Shown here: positions 1-19,275 of the stretch, piece after piece
Layout: each line of letters starts with the position of its first letter
Numbering within the stretch: position 1 is the stretch's first letter
Origin: a virus
Lineage: Duplodnaviria > Caudoviricetes
DNA length: 61,192 nucleotides
Direction: 5' to 3' (one strand)
Virus record (IMG/VR): IMGVR_UViG_3300031669_000025
Coordinates: 1-61,192 of that record
Program-made: the position numbers and the translations under genes
The notes under the pieces: model-generated
Told to the model about the DNA's origin: nothing
Database searches by the model: none
The model's input: the letters and a program-made list of their open reading frames with translations, nothing else

Positions 1-200
1 AATGTTTTATATTTGTTGTTATGTTCTTTTAAAAATGGGGATATGATGCAGTAATGTATCATCGACAAACATAATCTTCTATAACCTCTGGGAATCGGCA
101 CGTTATGGAGTGAAAGAGATGCCAAACTGAAACAGGACGCTAAAAGCCGATATATAGCCGAGTAGGTTGGTCTGGTGCGATAATGCCCCATTTTTATTGA

Positions 201-331
201 ACATAACGGCTGGCAATAAGAAATGTATGGGATTTAGAAGCAGTAACCTATCCCACTACACGAAATTAAATTAAAGGCACAACTGCACAATTTGGCACTG
301 ACACCCATATATTTTTTATTGTGTGTTATAG
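201..331. repeat. attC-like hairpin S1
   Basis: ACATAAC-ggctg-GCAATAAGAAATGTATGGG ... CCCATATATTTTTTATTGT-gt-GTTATAG. Confidence 0.8.
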
Positions 332-349
332 CCAGTTAATTTAAAAACT

Positions 350-553
350 ATGAACAAATTATTACTTACATTGAAAAGAGATTATAACGATTCAATTACT
401 TTAGTCGCAAATAATCACAAAGATTTAGAAGATTACTTACGTTCCAATTATGATTTTCATAAAATAACAGTAAGAGACGATTCTGTTAGTATTGTTGCTC
501 GTGAAGGTTATGAAACAGAGTTTGGAACGCTTGAATGGATACGCCACGTTTAA
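350..553 (+). CDS. Hypothetical cassette protein (67 aa)
   Basis: ORF fills cassette 325-564; its stop lies in the terminal inverted repeat. Confidence 0.8.
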   Translation: MNKLLLTLKRDYNDSITLVANNHKDLEDYLRSNYDFHKITVRDDSVSIVAREGYETEFGTLEWIRHV

Positions 554-557
554 TTGG

Positions 558-799
558 CTATAACGGACGGGAATAAACGACTTTTAAAAATTATACGATG
601 GAATATACAAAAGCAGATTTAAACTGGTTGATGAGCAAAATGGAATGCACATCAGAACGCTATATGGAAGCGGAAAAAATGATAATTGAGATTATAGATA
701 TGCCTTGGTGGAAGCGTCTATTTTGCGGACGCAAACTACTACGCTTCTTAAAAAGCCGAGACAAGTATAATTTTTAATTGCGTTTATTTATTGTTGTGC
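558..799. repeat. attC-like hairpin S2 with an ORF in its loop
   Basis: CTATAAC-ggacg-gGAATAAACGacTTTTAAAAATTATAC ... GTATAATTTTTAAttgCGTTTATTTa-tt-GTTGTGC. Confidence 0.7.
598..777 (+). CDS. Small hypothetical protein (59 aa, not in the ORF track)
   Basis: Translated by hand: MEYTKADLNWLMSKMECTSERYMEAEKMIIEIIDMPWWKRLFCGRKLLRFLKSRDKYNF*. It has an A-rich leader and exactly fills the hairpin loop. Confidence 0.7.
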   Translation: MEYTKADLNWLMSKMECTSERYMEAEKMIIEIIDMPWWKRLFCGRKLLRFLKSRDKYNF

Positions 800-823
800 T
801 TAACGAAGTGGCGTTTTAATGAA

Positions 824-884
824 GCATAACGTATGGTTGTATGATTTCGTTGCTTTTCGCAATGAATTATACAACGTGTTAGTA
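824..884. repeat. attC-like hairpin S3 (61 bp, minimal)
   Basis: GCATAAC-gtatg-GTTGTATGATTTCGTTGC-ttttc-GCAATGAATTATACAAC-gt-GTTAGTA. Confidence 0.85.
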
Positions 885-976
885 GCTGGCGGTTTAATTA
901 CCCACCACCGCCCGAACGAAGCACTAAAAAAAAGAAAAGCGAAGCGTGGGGATTTTTAATTTTAAAACTAGATATT

Positions 977-1411
977 ATGAAAGATTTTGATTCGATTAAA
1001 GGACTAATTAACAAAGATGCCTTACAAAAAAGCATAGATGCTAACACCGATGGATATGGTGGGGCTTGCGTAAATGTTGCAATAAATGTAATGAAGCATT
1101 TAGACGAGTTTAAGGATGAGTTTAACATTGGTTATAACCCAGACATGACAACACCACACGGCATTATTTGCAAATGTGATGACCAGGGAGGGATTACTGG
1201 CTTTATGGCTGGTGCTGCAAGAAATATAATTGCTAATTGCCACGTTTTAGGATGGAAATTTTACTTGGCTGATACATTAAGTCCATACGATATTGAGAGA
1301 GATGAAGATATTGAAAAAGCGATTAAAAATGTTGTAGATGCTAAACTAGTAAGCTACGATGAAGCAAAAGCATACACTGCTGACTTAATTAAAAGATATA
1401 AATCCAAATAA
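977..1411 (+). CDS. Hypothetical cassette protein (144 aa)
   Basis: ORF within cassette 878-1504; contains a GITGFMAG motif; no function assigned. Confidence 0.8.
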   Translation: MKDFDSIKGLINKDALQKSIDANTDGYGGACVNVAINVMKHLDEFKDEFNIGYNPDMTTPHGIICKCDDQGGITGFMAGAARNIIANCHVLGWKFYLADTLSPYDIERDEDIEKAIKNVVDAKLVSYDEAKAYTADLIKRYKSK

Positions 1412-1497
1412 GTTTGAAAAACTTAAAGCGGGTGGGGCTTTTCTTTTTTTGTTCCAATTACGCAGGAACTTTGATACGAGAACTAAACCCCGCTTGC

Positions 1498-1592
1498 TAC
1501 TAACGGTTGGGTGTATGAAACGTAATCTAACCACGAACTTTGATATTAACCACTGAACTATAATAGGTTATGTTTTATACACCTTGTTATGG
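1498..1592. repeat. attC-like hairpin S4
   Basis: TACTAAC-ggttg-GGTGTATGAAACGTAATCTA ... TAGGTTATGTTTTATACACC-tt-GTTATGG. Confidence 0.85.
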
Positions 1593-1634
1593 TTTAGTTA
1601 AAAAATTATTATACAAACTTAAAATAAAAAACAT

Positions 1635-1844
1635 ATGGAAAACAATTTAATGGAAATCGGTAAAAGATTTCATCAACTAAAAAGTGAATTATTACACGGT
1701 GGATACACTGGTGAAATGTTAGAAAATCACATAACAGATGTAATATCTGATGAAATCTTGTCTGAATTAGGTGAGATAGAAAGATATGATGAAGTAAAAA
1801 GAGCGTTAGTTAATATGTTTTTTCTTGGACAACTCTCGAAATAA
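1635..1844 (+). CDS. Hypothetical cassette protein (69 aa)
   Basis: ORF fills cassette 1586-1863. Confidence 0.8.
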   Translation: MENNLMEIGKRFHQLKSELLHGGYTGEMLENHITDVISDEILSELGEIERYDEVKRALVNMFFLGQLSK

Positions 1845-1856
1845 TTTTTTAATTAA

Positions 1857-1950
1857 CCATAACGTATTGCAATATGAAACGGTTGCCTTGTAAGACGTTT
1901 CACAATATAGATGCAGTTTTCTGGCAACTGTTTTATATTGCGTGTTATCG
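1857..1950. repeat. attC-like hairpin S5
   Basis: CCATAAC-gtatt-GCAATATGAAACGGTTGCC ... GGCAACTGTTTTATATTGC-gt-GTTATCG. Confidence 0.85.
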
Positions 1951-1987
1951 GCTGCCTTTATTGTTAAATCATTAAAATATCAAATAA

Positions 1988-2395
1988 ATGAAAAGAGAAA
2001 TATTATTTAAAGGGAAATTATCACATTCAAAAGAATGGATTGAAGGCAATTTAATTATTGCACAAAATGGAAAACCTTACATAATTCCATTTGATGTTAT
2101 TGAACCCGATGGGCATCATTTGATTATTGATTCAGATAATCCATTTTGGGTTGATGAAAATACTATTAGTCAATTTATAAACCAAACCGACAAAAATGGT
2201 AAAAAGATTTTTGAAGGCGATTATGATTCAGATGGTAATTGTATAGTTTGGTGCAAAGAATGTAATGGTTTTGAATTTGCTGCAATAGATTTACCAACGA
2301 AAGATATTTGCATCCCATGTCATAGATGCGATGGAAATTTCTTCTTTGGCGACCAAATAAACGACTTTGAGATTGTAGGGAATGTTGCGGATTAA
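1988..2395 (+). CDS. YopX-family protein (cassette-borne)
   Basis: MKREILFKGK...W..G and TISQF...DKNGKKIFEGD...FEIVGN are YopX signatures; it also has two extra CxxC pairs. Confidence 0.8.
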   Translation: MKREILFKGKLSHSKEWIEGNLIIAQNGKPYIIPFDVIEPDGHHLIIDSDNPFWVDENTISQFINQTDKNGKKIFEGDYDSDGNCIVWCKECNGFEFAAIDLPTKDICIPCHRCDGNFFFGDQINDFEIVGNVAD

Positions 2396-2404
2396 GGTTG
2401 CCGA

Positions 2405-2441
2405 TAACTCGTTTATATATACAGTTCAAAAAATTGAACCA
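2405..2441. other. Array-terminal site T1 (candidate attI-like docking site)
   Basis: TAACTCGTTTATATATACAGTTCAAAAAATTGAACCA; 29/37 ungapped identity to 6715-6751; no partner hairpin arm. Confidence 0.55.
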
Positions 2442-2505
2442 AGAGGAAATCTAACAAAGTAACTTAAAACTAATTTAATGTTTAAATTTACCTATAAATA
2501 ATACA

Positions 2506-2883
2506 ATGAAAAAACTAATTTTAATATTACTCCTATTAATACCTATAACTATATTCTCAAGTCCTCTTCATATTGGTCATGCTAAAGTATATGTTAAATA
2601 TTGTATTACTTCAGATAGACATGATACCTATGATGAAGAAAGTAACTATATAAGAGAATATTGTTCTAATAATGTTCAAGTATTTTATTTCTTTAATAGT
2701 AATAATACTTGCTATGAACAAACTACATTCTATGATAAGTCTATCCTTGCTAAACTTTATACTCAACTATCTAGTTTAACACCTGTTACAACTAATATTT
2801 GGATTGATACTAGTAATGGAGTATACTATGAATTATTAATACAAGATAAAGATACCTATTTCTGTATAAGAAATTGGAAATAA
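2506..2883 (+). CDS. Hypothetical exported protein
   Basis: N-terminal signal peptide MKKLILILLLLIPITIFS. Confidence 0.7.
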   Translation: MKKLILILLLLIPITIFSSPLHIGHAKVYVKYCITSDRHDTYDEESNYIREYCSNNVQVFYFFNSNNTCYEQTTFYDKSILAKLYTQLSSLTPVTTNIWIDTSNGVYYELLIQDKDTYFCIRNWK

Positions 2884-2935
2884 TAAATTACTATGAAAAA
2901 AGCATACTTATAGTGTATTAACACCTTGTTAAAAT

Positions 2936-3163
2936 ATGAGAGCATTTATAATAAAACACAGAGGTAAATCAAGATGGCAAAATATGGTATTTGATAGAGA
3001 AATAACTTTTTCTGATAAAGATAAAATATATGCAGGATTATTATTTTTTAGAAAGAAAGATGCTCAAAAATATCTTGAAACATATCAATATAAAGAATAC
3101 TATGAAGTCATTGGTGTGACTATTGATGATTCTAGTAAAGATAATAGGTTTACAAAAACTTAA
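2936..3163 (+). CDS. Hypothetical protein
   Basis: ORF in co-oriented gene run. Confidence 0.65.
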   Translation: MRAFIIKHRGKSRWQNMVFDREITFSDKDKIYAGLLFFRKKDAQKYLETYQYKEYYEVIGVTIDDSSKDNRFTKT

Positions 3164-3190
3164 ATTTATAATTCATAAACTTTAAATACA

Positions 3191-3412
3191 ATGACAAATG
3201 AACAAATTTATAAAAAGGTAGTGGGACATAAGCCAAATAAAAAGTTTGGTATAAAAGGCTCATTTAGTTGGGATGATATAAATAAATTAATGAATGAAAC
3301 AATAGAAAATTACATCATATCTAATGGTATAAAACTTTATTCCCAAGAAGAAATTGATATGGTTTATGATAAAGGTTTTGAAGATGGATGTATTTATTTA
3401 GCAAATAAGTAA
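3191..3412 (+). CDS. Hypothetical protein
   Basis: ORF in co-oriented gene run. Confidence 0.65.
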   Translation: MTNEQIYKKVVGHKPNKKFGIKGSFSWDDINKLMNETIENYIISNGIKLYSQEEIDMVYDKGFEDGCIYLANK

Positions 3413-3427
3413 TAAATTTTAAATGTA

Positions 3428-3634
3428 ATGAAACATCAATTTAATATTAGAAGAAGAAGCTATGTTTCAGTAATAACTCCAGAAATAGAGTATATTGTAG
3501 AACATAAGAATATAGGTTATAAATCTAACTTTATATCAGCAAAGTTAAGTATGAAACCTACAACAGTAAGTTATATCCTTAAAAGATATACACTTAAAGA
3601 TAAGAATAACAAGTATATAATGCATAATAAATAA
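3428..3634 (+). CDS. Small basic protein, possible HTH
   Basis: ISAKLSMKPTTVSYIL resembles an HTH recognition segment; its stop overlaps the polymerase start. Confidence 0.5.
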   Translation: MKHQFNIRRRSYVSVITPEIEYIVEHKNIGYKSNFISAKLSMKPTTVSYILKRYTLKDKNNKYIMHNK

Positions 3635-5508
3635 TGATTCATTTCATAAGCACACAAAAAATCATAGAAACAGATGAAATAAGAGAATCTACTGTAGAGG
3701 AAGCATTAAATTATCTTAATAATTTAGATATAATTGGATTAGATTTAGAAACTACGGGATTTGATCCATATAAAGATAAAATATTATTAATGCAATTAGG
3801 TGATAGAGAGAATCAATATGTTATAGATACAATTACAGTAGATATTCTTATTTTTAAAGAATTACTAGAAAGTGATAGGTTATTTATAGGTCAAAATATA
3901 AAATTTGATTTAAGATTTTTATTAGTTCAAAAAATTATAGTAAAAGATGTTTATGATACCTATATTGTTGAAGAAATTTTATATAATGGTATTGTAGGAA
4001 TAAGAAAAAGTTTAGATTATATAGCAGAAAGATATTGCAAAGTATTTCTTGATAAATCTATTAGAGGAAATATTCATAGAGAAGGAAATTCTTATAGAGT
4101 TATAAGATATGCAGCTGATGATGTAAAGTATCTACATGAAATTAGAGAGAAACAGTTACTAGATGTATATAAAAAGGATTTAAATAGATCAATAGAACTT
4201 AATAACTTATTTGTTCCAGTTCTTGCCTATGTTGAAATATCTGGATTTACTTTAGATAGTAGCAAGTGGAAAGAAAAAATGAGACAAGATAAAATAGAAT
4301 TAGAATCTAGACTAAATATTTTAAATAATTATATACTTGATAATAAAATAGACCAATTTATAGAGAAACAACTAGATTTATTTAATTCTAATACTACAGT
4401 TACAATAAATTGGAAATCTCCAAAACAAGTTGTAGAATTTCTAAAAATTATAGGTATTGATTCTAGGGAATTAGATAAAGATTCTGGAGAATTAAAATGG
4501 AAAGCAAATGCTACAGTATTACAGAAGAAAATAAGTGAAAATCCTATTATATCTACATTTATAGAGTATGGAGAATATTATAAAAAATGTTCTACTTATG
4601 GGGAGAACTTTTTAAAACAAATCCATCCTATAACTGGAAAATTACATACTAAGTTTCAACAATGGATGAAAACTGGTAGAATGTCTTCAGGTGGGAAGGA
4701 TAAAAGTGCTAATATTGAATATATAAACTTTCAAAATATCCCAGCAGATAGTGAAACTAGAAGTTGTTTTGTTGCTTCTGAAGGTAATATATTAATAGAT
4801 GCAGATTATTCTGGCCAAGAACAAATAGTTTTAGCTAATAAGTCCTTAGACCCAAATATTCTAGAGTTTTATGATAAGAAATTGGGAGATATGCATTCCT
4901 ATATTGCTAAATTATGTTTTAAAGAAGAGTTAGAAGGTATTGAACTCAGTGATGTAAAGAAGTTAAGACCAGATTTAAGACAACTTGCTAAAGCAGCAGG
5001 TTTTGCGATAAATTATGGTGGCAATGGATTTACTATAGCAAACAATTTAAATGTATCTCAAGATTTAGGAGATAAAGTATATGAAGCATATTTTAAAGCA
5101 TTTCCAGGATTAAAGAATTATTTTGATGGTGGATATAAAAATGCTAAAATGAGACATTATATTCTTTATAATGAAGTTACCAGAGATAAATTCTTTATTC
5201 CTTATTCTATGAAGGATGGGGAAATAAAAAGAGCATCAATGAATTTTCCTATACAAGGAACATCAGCTTCAATTACTAAATATGCAGCAATTTTATACTA
5301 TAGAAAATTACTAGAAAGAAATTTACTTTTTAAAATATTTATACCTAATATAATTCATGATGAAATTATACTAGATTGTCCTAAAGAAATAGCAAATGAA
5401 GAAAGTATAGTATTAAAACAATGTATGGAAGATGCAGGAGTAAGATTTAACCAAACTAGAGTTCCATTGTATGCAGAACCATGTATTACAGAATTTTGGA
5501 AACATTAA
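3634..5508 (+). CDS. polA: Family A DNA polymerase with 3'-5' exonuclease domain
   Basis: ExoI DLETTG, ExoII NIKFD, ExoIII YAADD; TGRMSS; motif A DADYSGQE; motif B RQLAKAAGFAINYG; NFPIQG; motif C IHDE. Confidence 0.97.
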   Translation: MIHFISTQKIIETDEIRESTVEEALNYLNNLDIIGLDLETTGFDPYKDKILLMQLGDRENQYVIDTITVDILIFKELLESDRLFIGQNIKFDLRFLLVQKIIVKDVYDTYIVEEILYNGIVGIRKSLDYIAERYCKVFLDKSIRGNIHREGNSYRVIRYAADDVKYLHEIREKQLLDVYKKDLNRSIELNNLFVPVLAYVEISGFTLDSSKWKEKMRQDKIELESRLNILNNYILDNKIDQFIEKQLDLFNSNTTVTINWKSPKQVVEFLKIIGIDSRELDKDSGELKWKANATVLQKKISENPIISTFIEYGEYYKKCSTYGENFLKQIHPITGKLHTKFQQWMKTGRMSSGGKDKSANIEYINFQNIPADSETRSCFVASEGNILIDADYSGQEQIVLANKSLDPNILEFYDKKLGDMHSYIAKLCFKEELEGIELSDVKKLRPDLRQLAKAAGFAINYGGNGFTIANNLNVSQDLGDKVYEAYFKAFPGLKNYFDGGYKNAKMRHYILYNEVTRDKFFIPYSMKDGEIKRASMNFPIQGTSASITKYAAILYYRKLLERNLLFKIFIPNIIHDEIILDCPKEIANEESIVLKQCMEDAGVRFNQTRVPLYAEPCITEFWKH

Positions 5509-5523
5509 TTAAATAAACTAATT

Positions 5524-5820
5524 ATGGGACAAGCAGTAAGTAAAAAGATCGTAGAATATCTAACCTACGAGGAGTTCAAGCAGCAACTGAAACTTCTCGA
5601 AACTACATCAACAACCAATTTTTTCAGGGATGTTCCAGTATACATTTCCAGTGATGGTAAAGGATGTATTATTGCTCTAATAGGTAACTTTATTTATTTT
5701 AATAAAGAGGATATTCTTATTGTAGATGAAATAGGTGATAATCCCCTTAAAGCCATCACCAAGGAGCAGTTCAATGAGGACTATACTCCCATTGAGGAGA
5801 TAAAGGTTAACCCAGTTTAA
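5524..5820 (+). CDS. Hypothetical protein
   Basis: 98-aa ORF. Confidence 0.65.
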   Translation: MGQAVSKKIVEYLTYEEFKQQLKLLETTSTTNFFRDVPVYISSDGKGCIIALIGNFIYFNKEDILIVDEIGDNPLKAITKEQFNEDYTPIEEIKVNPV

Positions 5821-5925
5821 AAACTAAAGATATGGAAGTAAAAGAATTTATTGGAGAAAAGGTAGTCTATGATGATCTAGATTAGTTTACGTATAATTAG
5901 TATATAATGTTCATTAAAAATTGTA

Positions 5926-6055
5926 CCCTAACGTTAAGTATATGGCAAGGTGGGGATTAAAACGTGCTGCCCTATCGAGCCAAAAGAAAGTAAATTAACA
6001 GCACAAATATTGCAAACTGGAATACGCCCCCAATTTGCTATATACATTGTTAGGG
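5926..6055. repeat. attC-like hairpin S6
   Basis: CCCTAAC-gttaa-GTATATGGCAAggTGGGG ... CCCCAatTTGCTATATAC-att-GTTAGGG. Confidence 0.75.
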
Positions 6056-6074
6056 TGCGTTTATTCTTATTAAA

Positions 6075-6401
6075 ATGGAAGCAAAAGAAGAAAAATTTAA
6101 AATAGAGGTAAGATTCTCAAAAAATAGACACTACCCTGAATATGGAAGTGAAGCATATAGTATTGAAAGCCATTCTATTTATATTCCGTATGGTAAAAGA
6201 TTTGATTTTAAAAATAGTAGCAGGGCAATAGAATTTATAAAAGGCAGAATTGATTCAAAAGTTTTAGAACATTTCGATTCTGTTTGCATAACAAAATGGC
6301 GTGGTTACGGAGGAACTTACGAATATTTGAAGGAATGTAAAGAAAAAAGCGACACCAAACCAATTGATAAAGAATTTGCTGAAAGTATACTGTTTTTTTA
6401 A
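6075..6401 (+). CDS. Hypothetical cassette protein (108 aa)
   Basis: ORF fills cassette 6049-6413. Confidence 0.8.
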   Translation: MEAKEEKFKIEVRFSKNRHYPEYGSEAYSIESHSIYIPYGKRFDFKNSSRAIEFIKGRIDSKVLEHFDSVCITKWRGYGGTYEYLKECKEKSDTKPIDKEFAESILFF

Positions 6402-6406
6402 ATGCA

Positions 6407-6536
6407 CCCTAACGGTTGCAAATATAAAATCGGTGGGATTTTACTCACCGACTTTGATAAATTGAATTAATGTAACTTAAACAGACTGGGCTAACAAGAC
6501 CACTAACACCCCACTGTTTTATATTTGTTGTTATGT
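6407..6536. repeat. attC-like hairpin S7
   Basis: CCCTAAC-ggttg-CAAATATAAAAtCGGTGGG ... CCCACTGTTTTATATTTG-tt-GTTATGT; the right arm matches the partial site at 3-24. Confidence 0.85.
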
Positions 6537-6549
6537 GGCGTTAATTATT

Positions 6550-6717
6550 ATGGACTGCCAACGACCAGTAAAAAACAAAGAAACAAACCAATGGGAAGTA
6601 TGGGATTTTGCTTACGAAGAAAATGGCGAAAGATACTATGAACTTCATAAGTTTTTTACATACAAAGAGGCTATTGATTTTTGGAAAGTTAGAAATCAGA
6701 AACTTAATGCCACATAA
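6550..6717 (+). CDS. Hypothetical cassette protein (55 aa)
   Basis: ATG at 6550 preferred over GTG 6535, which lies in the repeat; the stop TAA is the TAAC core. Confidence 0.75.
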   Translation: MDCQRPVKNKETNQWEVWDFAYEENGERYYELHKFFTYKEAIDFWKVRNQKLNAT

Positions 6718-6751
6718 CTAGTTTATAACCTTAGCTAAAAAAATTGAACCA
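6715..6751. other. Array-terminal site T2 (candidate attI-like docking site)
   Basis: TAACTAGTTTATAACCTTAGCTAAAAAAATTGAACCA; paralog of 2405-2441. Confidence 0.55.
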
Positions 6752-6809
6752 CATGAAAAGTGTCGAATCTATTGAATAAGATTTTAACTCATACATAAAA
6801 ACTAAAGAT

Positions 6810-7154
6810 ATGAAAAAGTTACTATTATTACTATCATTATTGCTACTATTTACTACAATTAATGCTACAGAAAAAAACATTCAATCAGTTGTAATAGTAA
6901 ATAATAATGTTAAATTAGGTAATGGATTTTATTCAATACCTAAACATTATAAATATACAATGAAACAAAAAGTAATACATTGTATAATTGCAGAAGCTAT
7001 AATATTTGCAATAGGTGAATATGCTATTAAAACTAGAAATGCACAATTATGGAATGCTGATGGTATTCTCTTTGTAGCATCTATTCCTGCTAATATTATA
7101 TATTTGAATAATTACAAAAGACCTATTGGTTGTAGTGGAATGAATAATCCTTAA
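6810..7154 (+). CDS. Hypothetical membrane/exported protein
   Basis: Signal peptide plus two hydrophobic segments. Confidence 0.7.
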   Translation: MKKLLLLLSLLLLFTTINATEKNIQSVVIVNNNVKLGNGFYSIPKHYKYTMKQKVIHCIIAEAIIFAIGEYAIKTRNAQLWNADGILFVASIPANIIYLNNYKRPIGCSGMNNP

Positions 7155-7157
7155 ATT

Positions 7158-7448
7158 ATGAATTTTAACTCATTTAAAAAGCATTTCAATAAATTATCTA
7201 TATGCTTAGATATTGCAGATATTGAGTTAAAAACTATATGGAATGATTTACCTCTAACTGATGATAAGAAAGCAAAAGAAGTCATTAAGAGAGGTAAATC
7301 TTTCAATATAGCACTCAATAGTTGGATTAATAGTATGGATAATAAGAATATTAGTGAAGATGCTAAACTATCATTAGGTAAGATGTATGATGATGTTAAT
7401 GACATTATTGATGAATATTTTGATGAACTTTATAAAGAAAGAAAATGA
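7158..7448 (+). CDS. Hypothetical protein
   Basis: ORF with overlapping start/stop junction to the next gene. Confidence 0.7.
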   Translation: MNFNSFKKHFNKLSICLDIADIELKTIWNDLPLTDDKKAKEVIKRGKSFNIALNSWINSMDNKNISEDAKLSLGKMYDDVNDIIDEYFDELYKERK

Positions 7449-13112: not shown

Positions 13113-13357
13113 TTTCTAAAAAAGAATTTGAAAAATTATTAAAAGAAGATAAATTCTTTACAGATTTTGATAAACAATGGGAATATAGATATCCTGTTGT
13201 AGAATATTATATTCATAACTATGGCCCAAAGATTATAATAAATGGGCAACCTATGGATATATTACTAATTAGACCTATAGATGATAATAATAAATTACTT
13301 GTTAATCAAGCATTTATGAGTATTAAATATAGGTTTGATAATGGTGAATTCAAATAA
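13109..13357 (+). CDS. Hypothetical protein
   Basis: ORF with ATGA overlap. Confidence 0.65.
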   Translation: MISKKEFEKLLKEDKFFTDFDKQWEYRYPVVEYYIHNYGPKIIINGQPMDILLIRPIDDNNKLLVNQAFMSIKYRFDNGEFK

Positions 13358-13379
13358 AGTATTAACCAAATTTTAAAAT

Positions 13380-17656: not shown

Positions 17657-19275
17657 TGAGTAGTATAGCAATAGCAGGTAAAAGTGGGACTGGTAAAAGC
17701 ACTTCCTATGGACAATTTTTAGATTTAGGAATTAAGGGACTTATTCCTAAAGAAACAGTAATTATTAATGTTGCTGGAAAAGATTTACCATTTAGAGGTT
17801 GGAAAAAACTATATTCTGGTAAAATTACTGAAGGGGGTAATTATTTTGAATCTTCTGATAGTAGTCAAATAGCACAGGCAATTACTTTTATATCAAATAG
17901 TAGAACTGATGTAAAAAATATTGTAATTGATGATGCACAATATACAATGGCTTTTGAATTTATGCGTAGGGCTAAAGAATCTGGTTATGGTAAATTTGCT
18001 GATATCGGTGTGAATACTGGTAAAATTGTTGAAGCAGCAAGAAATACTAGGAAAGATTTAAAAGTATATTTTTTGTGGCACCCTGAACAAGATAGAGATA
18101 CAGGATTTAAGTTAAAGACTGTTGGTAAGATGGTAGCGTAAAATCCGCCATTATCTGCTTAATTGCTGGAATTTCCTAAAGACAATAAAACTACAAAATA
18201 ATCTGAAAAGATAAGTTTGAAAGTTTGAAAATTTATTGTATATTTAATGGACAATCAGCAGCCAAGCCTCTAAGGTCAATTAATTGATTATGAGGAAGGT
18301 TCACAGACTATCTCCTGTTGTGGGAGAGTACATTAAAAAGTAATTAACTTTAATGGAAAGAGCAGACATAAGAATAAAAGTTTATTGTTTAAAGCATCCT
18401 GACACATTAGAAATAAGATATGTTGGAATAACTTCTAAGAGTCTAAACAAAAGGTTGAGTAAACATTTGGATAATGCTAGGTATACAAAACATAATAAGC
18501 ATTTGTATAATTGGATAAATAGCATATTAAAAAATGATAAAAAACCTATTATAGAAATAATAGAAGAAGTGGATTATGATATTTGGCAAGAGAAAGAAAA
18601 ATATTATATATCTCATTATCCCAATTTATTAAATTCTACAGAAGGTGGCGAAGGTGTATTTGGGTTCAGACATTCAGAAGCATCTAAAAAGAAGATGGGC
18701 AGAAAAGGTGTGTATCCAACAAAAGAAACACTACTGAAAAGAAGTAAGGCTTTAAAGGGGCGCATTGTATCGGAGGAACACAGAAGAAAGATAGGAGAAG
18801 CCAATTCAGGTAAGATATATACTAAATATAAAATTTTAGTAAAAGATTTATTGAATGATACTTCTATTATTTACAGTAGTGTTAAAGAGATTCATTCATC
18901 TTTAAGCATTGGAGAGATGACAGTCAGGAGGAATTTAAGCAATAACAAAATTGTTAAATCAAGATTTATTTTTATGAAAATATAGTCGAGACTTAATAGA
19001 AATATTAAGAATAATGCTGGAAGAATAATTAACTTCCTATAAAAAGCATTATTGAAATTTGAGATGATTACCTCACATTAGAAGGATTATTTACCGTAAT
19101 TCTTTATACTAGAGTAACTAAAGGTGCTGATAATAAGATTAAGTATGAATTTGTAACCAATAATGATGGAGAATTTCCAGCAAAAAGTCCTATTGGTATG
19201 TTTAAGGATATCTATATTCAAAATGATTTAGGTCTTGTATCTGAAATCATTGATAAGTATAATGAAGATGAATAA
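17656..19275 (+). CDS. AAA_24/Sak4-like P-loop ATPase, spliced: exon 1 17656-18134 + exon 2 19062-19275 (230 aa)
   Basis: Walker A GKSGTGKST, Walker B IVIDD. Joining exons (479+214=693 nt) gives KTVGKMV-DDYLTLEGLFTVILY...AKSPIGMF...NDL, a continuous family-like sequence. Confidence 0.9.
18135..19061 (+). ncRNA. Group I self-splicing intron (927 nt)
   Basis: Exon ends in U and intron ends in G; P1 AUGGU/GCCAU with G-U at the splice site; P AATTGCTGGAA, Q AATCAGCAGCC, R GTTCACAGACTA, S AAATATAGTCG. Confidence 0.92.
18353..18985 (+). CDS. Intron-encoded GIY-YIG homing endonuclease with NUMOD3 repeats
   Basis: KVY...YVG...R...H, LLNSTEGGEG, HSEASKKKM and SEEHRRKIGEA; sits between the R and S elements. 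Confidence 0.9.
   Translation: MERADIRIKVYCLKHPDTLEIRYVGITSKSLNKRLSKHLDNARYTKHNKHLYNWINSILKNDKKPIIEIIEEVDYDIWQEKEKYYISHYPNLLNSTEGGEGVFGFRHSEASKKKMGRKGVYPTKETLLKRSKALKGRIVSEEHRRKIGEANSGKIYTKYKILVKDLLNDTSIIYSSVKEIHSSLSIGEMTVRRNLSNNKIVKSRFIFMKI

Follow-up and report, generated by a model that had tools for sequence, protein, structure and literature searches.

The window analysed here is the whole of a 61,192-base viral contig (IMG/VR record IMGVR_UViG_3300031669_000025; estimated completeness of 62%), which was assigned to the crAss-like phages by Pfam matches to the crAss muzzle protein (E-value = 2.4 × 10−142), to ring proteins 1 and 2 and to the cargo protein domain. An open reading frame (ORF) of 2,565 aa is encoded in the virion RNA polymerase position of the contig, and the replication module contains a family A DNA polymerase gene at 3634–5508; gene direction is rightward up to approximately 33 kb and leftward beyond. 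Two islands richer in G+C (33–35% in the arrays versus 22–29% in the backbone) lie at 1–2423 and 5919–6730, with ordinary backbone genes in between. In each island two kinds of palindromic module alternate, namely, an attC-like hairpin and, after it, a small ORF enclosed in an inverted repeat. The two arrays, situated in the early/replication region of the phage, probably consist of mobile gene cassettes of a phage-borne, integron-like system.

All array features described below are given on the + strand. The hairpin consists of xTAAC, a 5-nt spacer, a stem of approximately 20 bp with a variable loop, a 2–3-nt spacer and GTTAK. Six whole hairpins of 57–127 nt each were found in the window, at 203–329 (ATAAC…GTTAT), 826–882 (the short ATAAC…GTTAG), 1500–1590 (CTAAC…GTTAT), 1859–1948 (ATAAC…GTTAT), 5928–6053 (CTAAC…GTTAG) and 6409–6534 (CTAAC…GTTAT), together with a seventh cut off at the contig start, whose right arm and GTTAT (1–22) carry the same motif as 6513–6534 and are identical at 22 of 22 positions to a hairpin arm of the phage LR756500. 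The second module is a + strand ORF of 55–144 aa inside an inverted repeat of 14–25 nt, which begins at the GTTAK of the preceding hairpin and ends at the xTAAC of the next one. Cassette bodies of this kind are located at 325–565 (repeat 325–339/551–565, ORF 350–553, 67 aa), 882–1504 (GTTAG…CTAAC, ORF 977–1411, 144 aa), 1586–1863 (25-nt repeat, ORF 1635–1844, 69 aa), 1944–2409 (ORF 1988–2395, 135 aa), 6049–6413 (15-nt repeat with 14 pairs and one G-T, ORF 6075–6401, 108 aa) and 6530–6717 (ORF 6550–6717, 55 aa, or 60 aa from the GTG at 6535). One further repeat of the cassette type (18–207, arms 18–42/183–207; 20 Watson–Crick pairs, two transversions and one gap) encloses no + strand ORF of at least 40 aa. 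The first base outside the 4-base core has its partner in the cassette repeat in all 7 cases and in the hairpin in only 3 of 6; therefore, the hairpin module is taken as TAAC…GTTA and the remainder is assigned to the cassette body. The right end of both islands is a lone ATAAC with a T/A-rich stretch (2405–2423 and 6713–6730) and without a complete hairpin.

Related hairpins were found in other phages. In a blastn search against phage records, single hairpins, not genes, were matched in OP947161 (a 44.8-kb phage) and LR756500 (a 462-kb phage); the long loop of hairpin 203–329 is conserved in the former, and hairpin 1500–1590 is 85% identical to one of the latter, with the loop inverted. A covariance model, R1, was built from 19 hairpins. 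At E-values up to 1 it matched the six window hairpins, all of them training sequences (92.7, 48.1, 63.7, 67, 71.9 and 76.3 bits in the order given above), and no other site of the 61 kb; in LR756500 it returned 15 sites inside 10 kb. An 18-base arm motif led to 73 viral loci, in which R1 gave 206 matches, restricted to a single strand per locus save for one double match; the largest array comprised approximately 19 hairpins in one locus. After 11 rows from two overlapping loci and the one opposite-strand double match had been dropped, the 194 rows kept, together with ten hairpins from the window and OP947161, yielded 180 unique sequences, in which the inverse core sites are conserved as in attC, where they read RYYYAAC…GTTRRRY (TAAC 93–100%, GTTA 97–100%). 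R1 gave no match in Polaribacter phage P12002L, where the hairpin is short and the model long, and the hairpin of that phage was found by motif search. Rfam at gathering thresholds gave no matches over the whole window, the models used including none for attC. No window cassette protein exceeded a Pfam family cut-off, ORF 1988–2395 giving a weak, sub-threshold match to YopX, and none was similar to array ORFs of LR756500, OP947161 or P12002L.

The initial annotation had held that nearly all mismatches in the stems of these hairpins and repeats, which do lie where it had placed them, are G-T pairs on the + strand, and that the + strand is thus the one selected to fold. In a fixed register the window hairpins contain 13 G-T pairs on the + strand, no A-C and 12 other non-pairs, mostly register shifts in three hairpins; among isolated mismatches, i.e., those flanked by two Watson–Crick pairs on either side, there are nine G-T/T-G on the + strand, no A-C and no transversions (hairpin 203–329 has three G-T and no A-C). 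The seven cassette repeats of the window contain six G-T on the + strand, no A-C, six transversions and eight gap positions. Consequently, the claim is exact for all transition mismatches (9:0 and 6:0) and overstated for the repeats. Strand composition skew predicts a ratio of approximately 53:47, whereas 15:0 was observed for the window hairpins and repeats. With DNA parameters the + strand had the lower fold energy in six of six hairpins (+/−: −10.7/−9.9, −9.5/−7.5, −9.7/−6.5, −17.1/−12.3 for hairpin 1859–1948, −15.6/−12.4 and −13.6/−12.8; the short hairpin 826–882 is likewise more stable on the + strand), and the same was true in five of six hairpins with RNA parameters and in six of seven repeat duplexes.

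The bias persisted on the full count. Isolated mismatches in the 180 related hairpins (5′/3′ arm) numbered 240 G/T, 9 T/G, 9 A/C, 6 C/A and 30 transversions (249 versus 15 for the two kinds of transition mismatch), and the sense strand was the more stable one in 166 of 180 with DNA parameters (on average −13.1 versus −10.7 kcal/mol) and in 160 of 180 with RNA parameters. In 148 unique cassette repeats the corresponding numbers were 93, 10, 12, 6 and 42 (103 versus 18). A further 60 hairpins, gathered via the recombinase protein described below rather than by motif and oriented by the neighbouring recombinase gene, had 72 G/T, 1 T/G, 2 A/C, 3 C/A and 13 transversions, with that strand more stable in 58 of 60. 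It should be noted that R1 was trained on G-T-bearing hairpins, so that its strand calls lean to the sense strand; ORF direction and recombinase direction independently indicate the same hairpin orientation. The left (5′) arm is approximately 3 nt longer than the right one (542 left-only versus 29 right-only positions in the 180 hairpins). Wobbles occur mainly at two fixed places 5 bp apart, where they face T-15 (84% T) and T-20 (96% T) of the right arm. Stability does not account for the directional G/T excess or for these two fixed wobbles, which resemble recognition features or a means of making the arms unlike each other. A mutational bias such as C-to-T deamination was considered and rejected as the source of the wobbles, since T/G and G/T would then be equally frequent.

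In 263 classical attC sites, 1.24 G:T pairs were reported on the bottom strand versus 0.39 on the top strand, and the bottom strand, which is the recombined one, was 2.12 kcal/mol more stable (Nivina et al. 2016, PMC5027507). By analogy, the G:T and stability criterion of that study supports the + (coding) strand as the bottom-strand equivalent in the phage arrays. The cores read TAAC-G (95%) … T-GTTA (97%) on the + strand of the 180 hairpins. For comparison with classical sites, the forward primers in Table S3 of the phage attC study cited next are presumed to be bottom strands, which is our own reading. The core-flanking bases of the phage hairpins match the strands so read for the aadA7 and PH101 sites (Qi et al. 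2023, Table S3), and the reading fits the statement in that paper that the two P12002L sites diverge.

The + strand of the arrays would also be the transcribed one, and an unlikely, though not negligible, explanation is that the bias was selected in RNA, the hairpins and repeats folding in the + transcript with G-U pairs for the sake of mRNA stability, processing (e.g., by RNase III) or termination, and cassette movement may occur all the same, through either strand or through homologous recombination. ORFs of at least 50 aa within array spans number 241 on the hairpin strand versus 47 on the opposite strand, so that every hairpin is transcribed as drawn; by RNA fold energy the sense strand is the better one in 160 of 180 cases, the stems are approximately 20 bp long, and the repeat arms begin at the 5′ untranslated region and finish at the stop codon, all of which such selection would accommodate. 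However, no T-runs follow the hairpins, and the four terminator-like sites in 1–7200 (2.3 expected) are all on the − strand. Sigma-70-like promoters were not enriched (40 found versus 46.1 expected, other promoter types being outside the scan), and the Bacteroidota −7 box was present in 35 of 180 right arms, most of which had been collected by a pattern containing the box, the full −33/−7 pattern being found in 9 of 180 hairpins. Folding in RNA also leaves unexplained the TAAC/GTTA cores, the recombinase synteny and exact junctions described below, and the prevalence of G/U over U/G (240 to 9).

A recombinase gene adjoins the arrays in related phages. Among 84 ORFs of at least 170 aa from 24 array-bearing loci, two encoded tyrosine recombinases of 265 and 268 aa (PF00589 and a SAM-like N-terminal domain; 53% identical to one another), and both genes lie on the cassette strand and start 45–60 nt past the lone TAAC that closes the array. 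A scan of viral contigs with the recombinase alignment gave 26 loci. R1 was run over 25 of these and found hairpins upstream of the gene in 16 of the 21 loci having at least 600 nt of upstream sequence; all 76 hairpin matches were upstream of the recombinase, with none in the downstream flank (up to 7 kb), and 74 were on the recombinase strand, the other two being second matches at the same places. TAAC with a T/A-rich box (typically TATTATATATAC) was located 45–70 nt before the recombinase start in 20 of 20 loci inspected (15 by a strict pattern and five as variants). The loci L086 and L087 are 100% identical for 400 nt from this TAAC into the gene and 60% identical upstream (random level), i.e., the switch to unrelated cassettes falls exactly at TAAC; other pairs gave 0.91/0.59 and 0.84/0.62. 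Such an exact switch is the trace expected from different cassettes inserted at one attachment site. An attI-like site past the gene-sense 3′ end of the array, which the initial annotation had postulated at the right end, is present next to a recombinase in related loci, and the window array ends resemble this conserved site with no recombinase gene beside them: the end of array 1 (2405–2423), attI-like by similarity, shares 17 identical nt with an array end in the locus L015 and is homologous to 6713–6755, whereas the stretch at the end of array 2 (6713–6730), homologous to 2405–2445, is more weakly attI-like.

The recombinases are similar to Xer and archaeal XerA enzymes. The best NCBIfam match was NF040815 (XerA type) with 191 and 177.5 bits, below the cut-off of 220, followed by XerC/XerD models with 143–156 bits (cut-offs of 330–335); the closest solved structures are XerA of Pyrococcus (4a8e, E-value = 3.7 × 10−34) and of Thermoplasma (5hxy), and the catalytic R, H-x-x-R, H and Y are aligned with those of XerA. 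Unlike Xer proteins of the Xer/dif system, the phage recombinases score below the family cut-off, and their genes adjoin cassette arrays rather than a chromosome dimer resolution site. Folded DNA can be used by a Xer enzyme that lacks the IntI insert, as the CTX phage is integrated by XerCD via a folded single-stranded hairpin. In a tblastn search against 50,697 phage records, 48 records were matched, all at less than 60% identity; the nearest relatives in isolated phages were those of Polaribacter and Cellulophaga phages (34–36% identity), which points to Bacteroidota hosts. A scan of 185,579 species genomes of bacteria and archaea with two peptide patterns revealed two distant relatives (49% and 31% identity) without hairpins, a pattern scan of this kind being unable to show absence from bacteria.

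The constancy of this arrangement bears on the possibility that no site-specific recombination takes place, the hairpins being regulatory stem-loops like the promoter early stem-loops (PeSLs) of T4-type phages, the genes being shuffled by homologous or microhomology-mediated recombination and the recombinase being an ordinary phage integrase. This is improbable: recombinase, site and array stand in one fixed order and orientation in 16 loci, the L086/L087 breakpoint falls at a 4-base core, the hairpin families have approximately ten conserved bases in common, too few for homologous exchange between families, and arrays occur in large phages of lytic type (contigs of 200–460 kb), where an integrase for lysogeny is not expected. 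It would account for homologous hairpins that flank unrelated ORFs in several phage types, for the arrays without any recombinase, and for one hairpin loop that is inverted between two phages, as recombination between arms would give.

The polarity of the units was assessed from 199 pairs of homologous hairpins (inner identity of at least 75%, drawn from 177 unique hairpin-plus-flank records; downstream in the gene sense). Only the downstream 30 nt were co-conserved in 45 pairs, only the upstream 30 nt in 3, both in 2 and neither in 149. L015 and L040, located on different contigs, have in common a 99.7%-identical block with unlike sequence on either side; the block begins shortly ahead of one CTAAC, spans the hairpin and the ORF behind it, and stops shortly past the next CTAAC. 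Thus, the unit consists of a hairpin and its downstream ORF, with both ends at hairpin 5′ bases. Identical repeat arms (GTTAK to start codon, stop codon to xTAAC) enclose unrelated ORFs: the repeat of cassette 325–565 flanks an unrelated ORF in OP947161, and in L009 and L015 both arms of cassette 6530–6717 are found around ORFs unrelated to that of the window. Metagenome contigs were consulted solely for the positions that they span or connect; in four runs they keep the window cassette arms with something else between them, and in three runs they retain the arms of cassette 6049–6413 but not its ORF. Among the runs X1–X4, compared over window positions 150–7150, the probable source run had a summed contig depth over the hairpin and repeat modules 6–15 times that of the phage backbone, which implies that the modules are common to many genomes of that community.

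From these data, two further proposals of the initial annotation gain support, namely, that the array runs from right to left, the hairpin being inherited with the following ORF, and that the folding strand is the coding strand, so that the ORFs appear reversed relative to classical cassettes: the G-T signature and the core-flanking bases are on the + strand, and the ORFs point toward the site. The ORFs would, as that annotation further proposed, be read by the rightward early transcription of the phage. The converse arrangement, with classical polarity, would have the − strand recombine, its A-C mismatches and 3-nt bulge acting as extrahelical bases, the ORFs being on the top strand and the attI-like site coincidental. 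Read on the − strand, the 3′ arm does carry the extra bases and the mismatched C's, as it carries the unpaired features in classical bottom strands (PMC5027507), and the fixed wobble positions (right-arm T-15 and T-20) are such as would be expected of recognition features. Nevertheless, classical polarity is highly unlikely, since the linkage runs the opposite way (45 versus 3), the common unit is a hairpin with its downstream ORF, the recombinase and site are at the gene-sense 3′ end in 16 of the 16 arrays having one, the arrays close on the right with a lone TAAC and not with a complete hairpin, and in 166 of 180 cases the − strand is the poorer folder.

Compared with known systems, the phage arrays resemble classical integrons and clusters of attC sites lacking integron integrases (CALINs) in that small, unrelated, mostly unknown ORFs are arrayed between imperfect hairpins (57–130 nt) with inverse core sites (xTAAC/GTTAK) and variable loops, and in that one strand, here the coding one, is richer in G:T and has the lower fold energy. 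In the related loci, as in classical integrons, the tyrosine recombinase gene faces away from the array, a conserved site precedes the first cassette, and the cassette body lies nearer to that site than the hairpin does; both kinds of system include clusters that lack a recombinase, and the window has six hairpins and no recombinase. Unlike in classical integrons, the phage ORFs are on the bottom-strand equivalent and read toward the site, cassette-specific repeats of 14–25 nt extend the core boxes, and the system has so far been seen in viral contigs only; the phage recombinase of approximately 265 aa is Xer/XerA-like and, unlike IntI, lacks the IntI insert. The phage cassette system is therefore not a canonical integron. 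According to PMC5027507, reverse-facing cassettes have never been observed in mobile or chromosomal integrons.

The nearest precedent is the report of attC clusters in virulent phages (Qi et al. 2023, PMC9892861). One of its sites, P12002L_attC1, opens with CTAAC and a 5-nt spacer, has a G-T pair in its stem and closes with a 2–3-nt spacer and GTTAG; it lies on the coding strand between two methyltransferase genes, the downstream one being flanked by GTTAGGCAC and GTGCCTAAC, and is the sole published member of the hairpin family. In our reading, in which the primers are again taken as bottom strands, HattCI put the bottom strand of P12002L_attC1 on the coding strand. The available text of Qi et al. 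(2023) handles P12002L_attC1 as an ordinary attC, detected by HattCI only, and describes no cognate recombinase, attI-like site or family-wide polarity; the annotation file deposited with that paper in Dryad may list more members. A search of the full-text literature yielded no phage cassette system with a Xer-like recombinase or reversed polarity, that study being the closest one found. PeSLs of T4-type phages (PMC4122927, PMC2839356) are likewise short conserved stem-loops, interspersed with small accessory ORFs in the hyperplastic regions of lytic phages, and are associated with gene swapping, but each combines a terminator with a promoter and works by homologous recombination, with no recombinase of its own, whereas the phage hairpins have an inverse-repeat core of 4–5 bases and a syntenic dedicated recombinase.

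Several observations weigh against an integron-like system of this polarity. Unlike attC, the hairpins have continuous stems without extrahelical bases, and their spacers are asymmetric (5 nt versus 2–3 nt); the approximately three extra nucleotides are contiguous and adjoin the core, on the + strand's 5′ arm, whereas in classical bottom strands the extra bases are on the 3′ arm. Fold stability alone does not explain the direction of the mismatches, in which the 5′ arm has the G and the 3′ arm the T (240 versus 9). The + strand is also the mRNA strand, which makes selection on RNA folding and on DNA folding inseparable by computation. The attI-like ends of the window arrays require a 1-nt indel to fit the consensus, and the loose attI-like pattern is not rare in the AT-rich window (8 found, 10.8 expected). 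No PF00589 match was found in the window, which is 62% complete, or in the complete array-bearing genomes LR756500 and OP947161. The recombinases are not IntI: TIGR02249 gave 151.7 and 137.9 bits in two stretches (cut-off 265), and a segment of 80 residues between the catalytic blocks of VchIntIA (2a3v) corresponds to one of 32 in the phage proteins, so that approximately 48 residues are missing. Finally, P12002L_attC1 alone of six phage attC candidates failed to recombine in the assay reported in PMC9892861, in which IntI1, a non-cognate integrase, was used. The placement of the extra bases on the opposite arm may accompany the loss of the IntI insert that binds extrahelical bases.

Taking these points together, the mobile-cassette interpretation of the arrays is still favoured, and it can be summarized as follows. 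The unit is an attC-like hairpin with a small ORF behind it, bracketed by a 14–25-nt repeat. In the platform, as found in related phages, the array abuts a conserved attI-like site (TAAC with a T/A-rich stretch), beyond which is the gene of the Xer/XerA-like recombinase of approximately 265 aa, facing away. Outward from the site the order is cassette body, hairpin, cassette body, hairpin, as in integrons, with only the ORFs turned round. The + strand would fold, and the recombinase would exchange strands at TAA|C of the hairpin 5′ base and of the attI-like site, so that cassettes could be excised as circles and inserted next to the site. The anatomy, the strand bias, the linkage, the synteny with the recombinase and the exact junctions were observed, and the strand exchange, the reacting strand and the mode of ORF expression are what we infer. 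The window arrays would then be the analogue of a CALIN, either served in trans or relics.

The wider proposal, the chances of which we consider to be about even, is that of a second, phage-specific lineage of integron-like gene-capture platforms with a XerA-like recombinase without the IntI insert, a TAAC-initial attI-like site, two fixed G-T wobbles and a 3-nt bulge in place of extrahelical bases, and the ORF on the recombining strand behind its own hairpin. Its cassettes would circulate among unrelated phages (crAss-like, jumbo and siphovirus-type), probably of Bacteroidota hosts, and supply small accessory genes of the early region. Integrons are known as bacterial devices with one integrase family and one cassette polarity; if the proposal is true, gene capture by single-stranded hairpins arose, or diversified, more than once, and the phage version would differ in its Xer-like enzyme without the IntI insert, in ORFs on the recombining strand and in its home in lytic phages. 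The proposal would also explain how small "ORFan" genes turn over in the hyperplastic regions of phages; many of these genes are likely to serve anti-defence or host takeover. The larger cassettes in the loci L034, L011, L029 and L052 encode DNA methyltransferases (N6_N4_Mtase and C-5), a SwaI-like restriction enzyme, an ADP-ribosyltransferase domain and metallophosphatases, a cargo which points to an anti-defence and host-takeover role.

Two other candidate identities of the hairpins were rejected, namely, N4-type hairpin promoters for the crAss virion RNA polymerase, as the same hairpins are present in non-crAss phages, and ends of the IS200/IS605 type, as no HUH transposase was found among the 84 large neighbouring ORFs.

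Some features of individual modules should also be mentioned. In the family of hairpin 203–329, a loop of approximately 70 nt is kept across phages (in L004 at 6056–6179 and 13246–13370), including the shared sequence AATTTGGCAC. Hairpin 1500–1590 and its counterpart in L003 (27701–27790, in the gene sense) have nearly identical arms and spacers, with a loop of approximately 35 nt inverted (flip-flop), as recombination between the arms would yield. In many cassettes the 5′ repeat arm extends up to the start codon, and the 3′ arm with xTAAC gives stops in more than one frame, the stop codon of ORF 6550–6717 being the TAA within ATAAC. Between cassette 325–565 and hairpin 826–882 there is an irregular unit (561–830) with a left-arm-like sequence at 561–582, ORF 598–777 (59 aa) and a right-arm-like sequence at 779–800, for which R1 gave no match; it represents a hairpin that either holds an ORF in its loop or has decayed, and a tiny GTGCTT…AAGCAT repeat follows at 796–830. 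In Polaribacter phage Freya_10 (L107), arm-like sequence with TAAC and the box CCAATAAAATCAATA was found at 4080–4150, upstream of a 35%-identical recombinase gene, which resembles the array-linked genes in this respect, although R1 detected no hairpin in this phage; across ten Freya phage records the start coordinate of the recombinase ranges from 104 to 4201.

In the remainder of the contig, a free-standing ORF resembling GIY-YIG/NUMOD3 homing endonucleases is located at 18353–18985, in the replication module. The left edge of array 2 is an orphan sequence similar to a 3′ arm with CTAAC (5919–5932), for which no matching 5′ arm was found. This array is bracketed by a 16-nt direct duplication (5819–5834 and 6797–6812) of the ribosome-binding and start region of gene 6810–7154, which has left a truncated ORF of 17 codons at 5832–5885.

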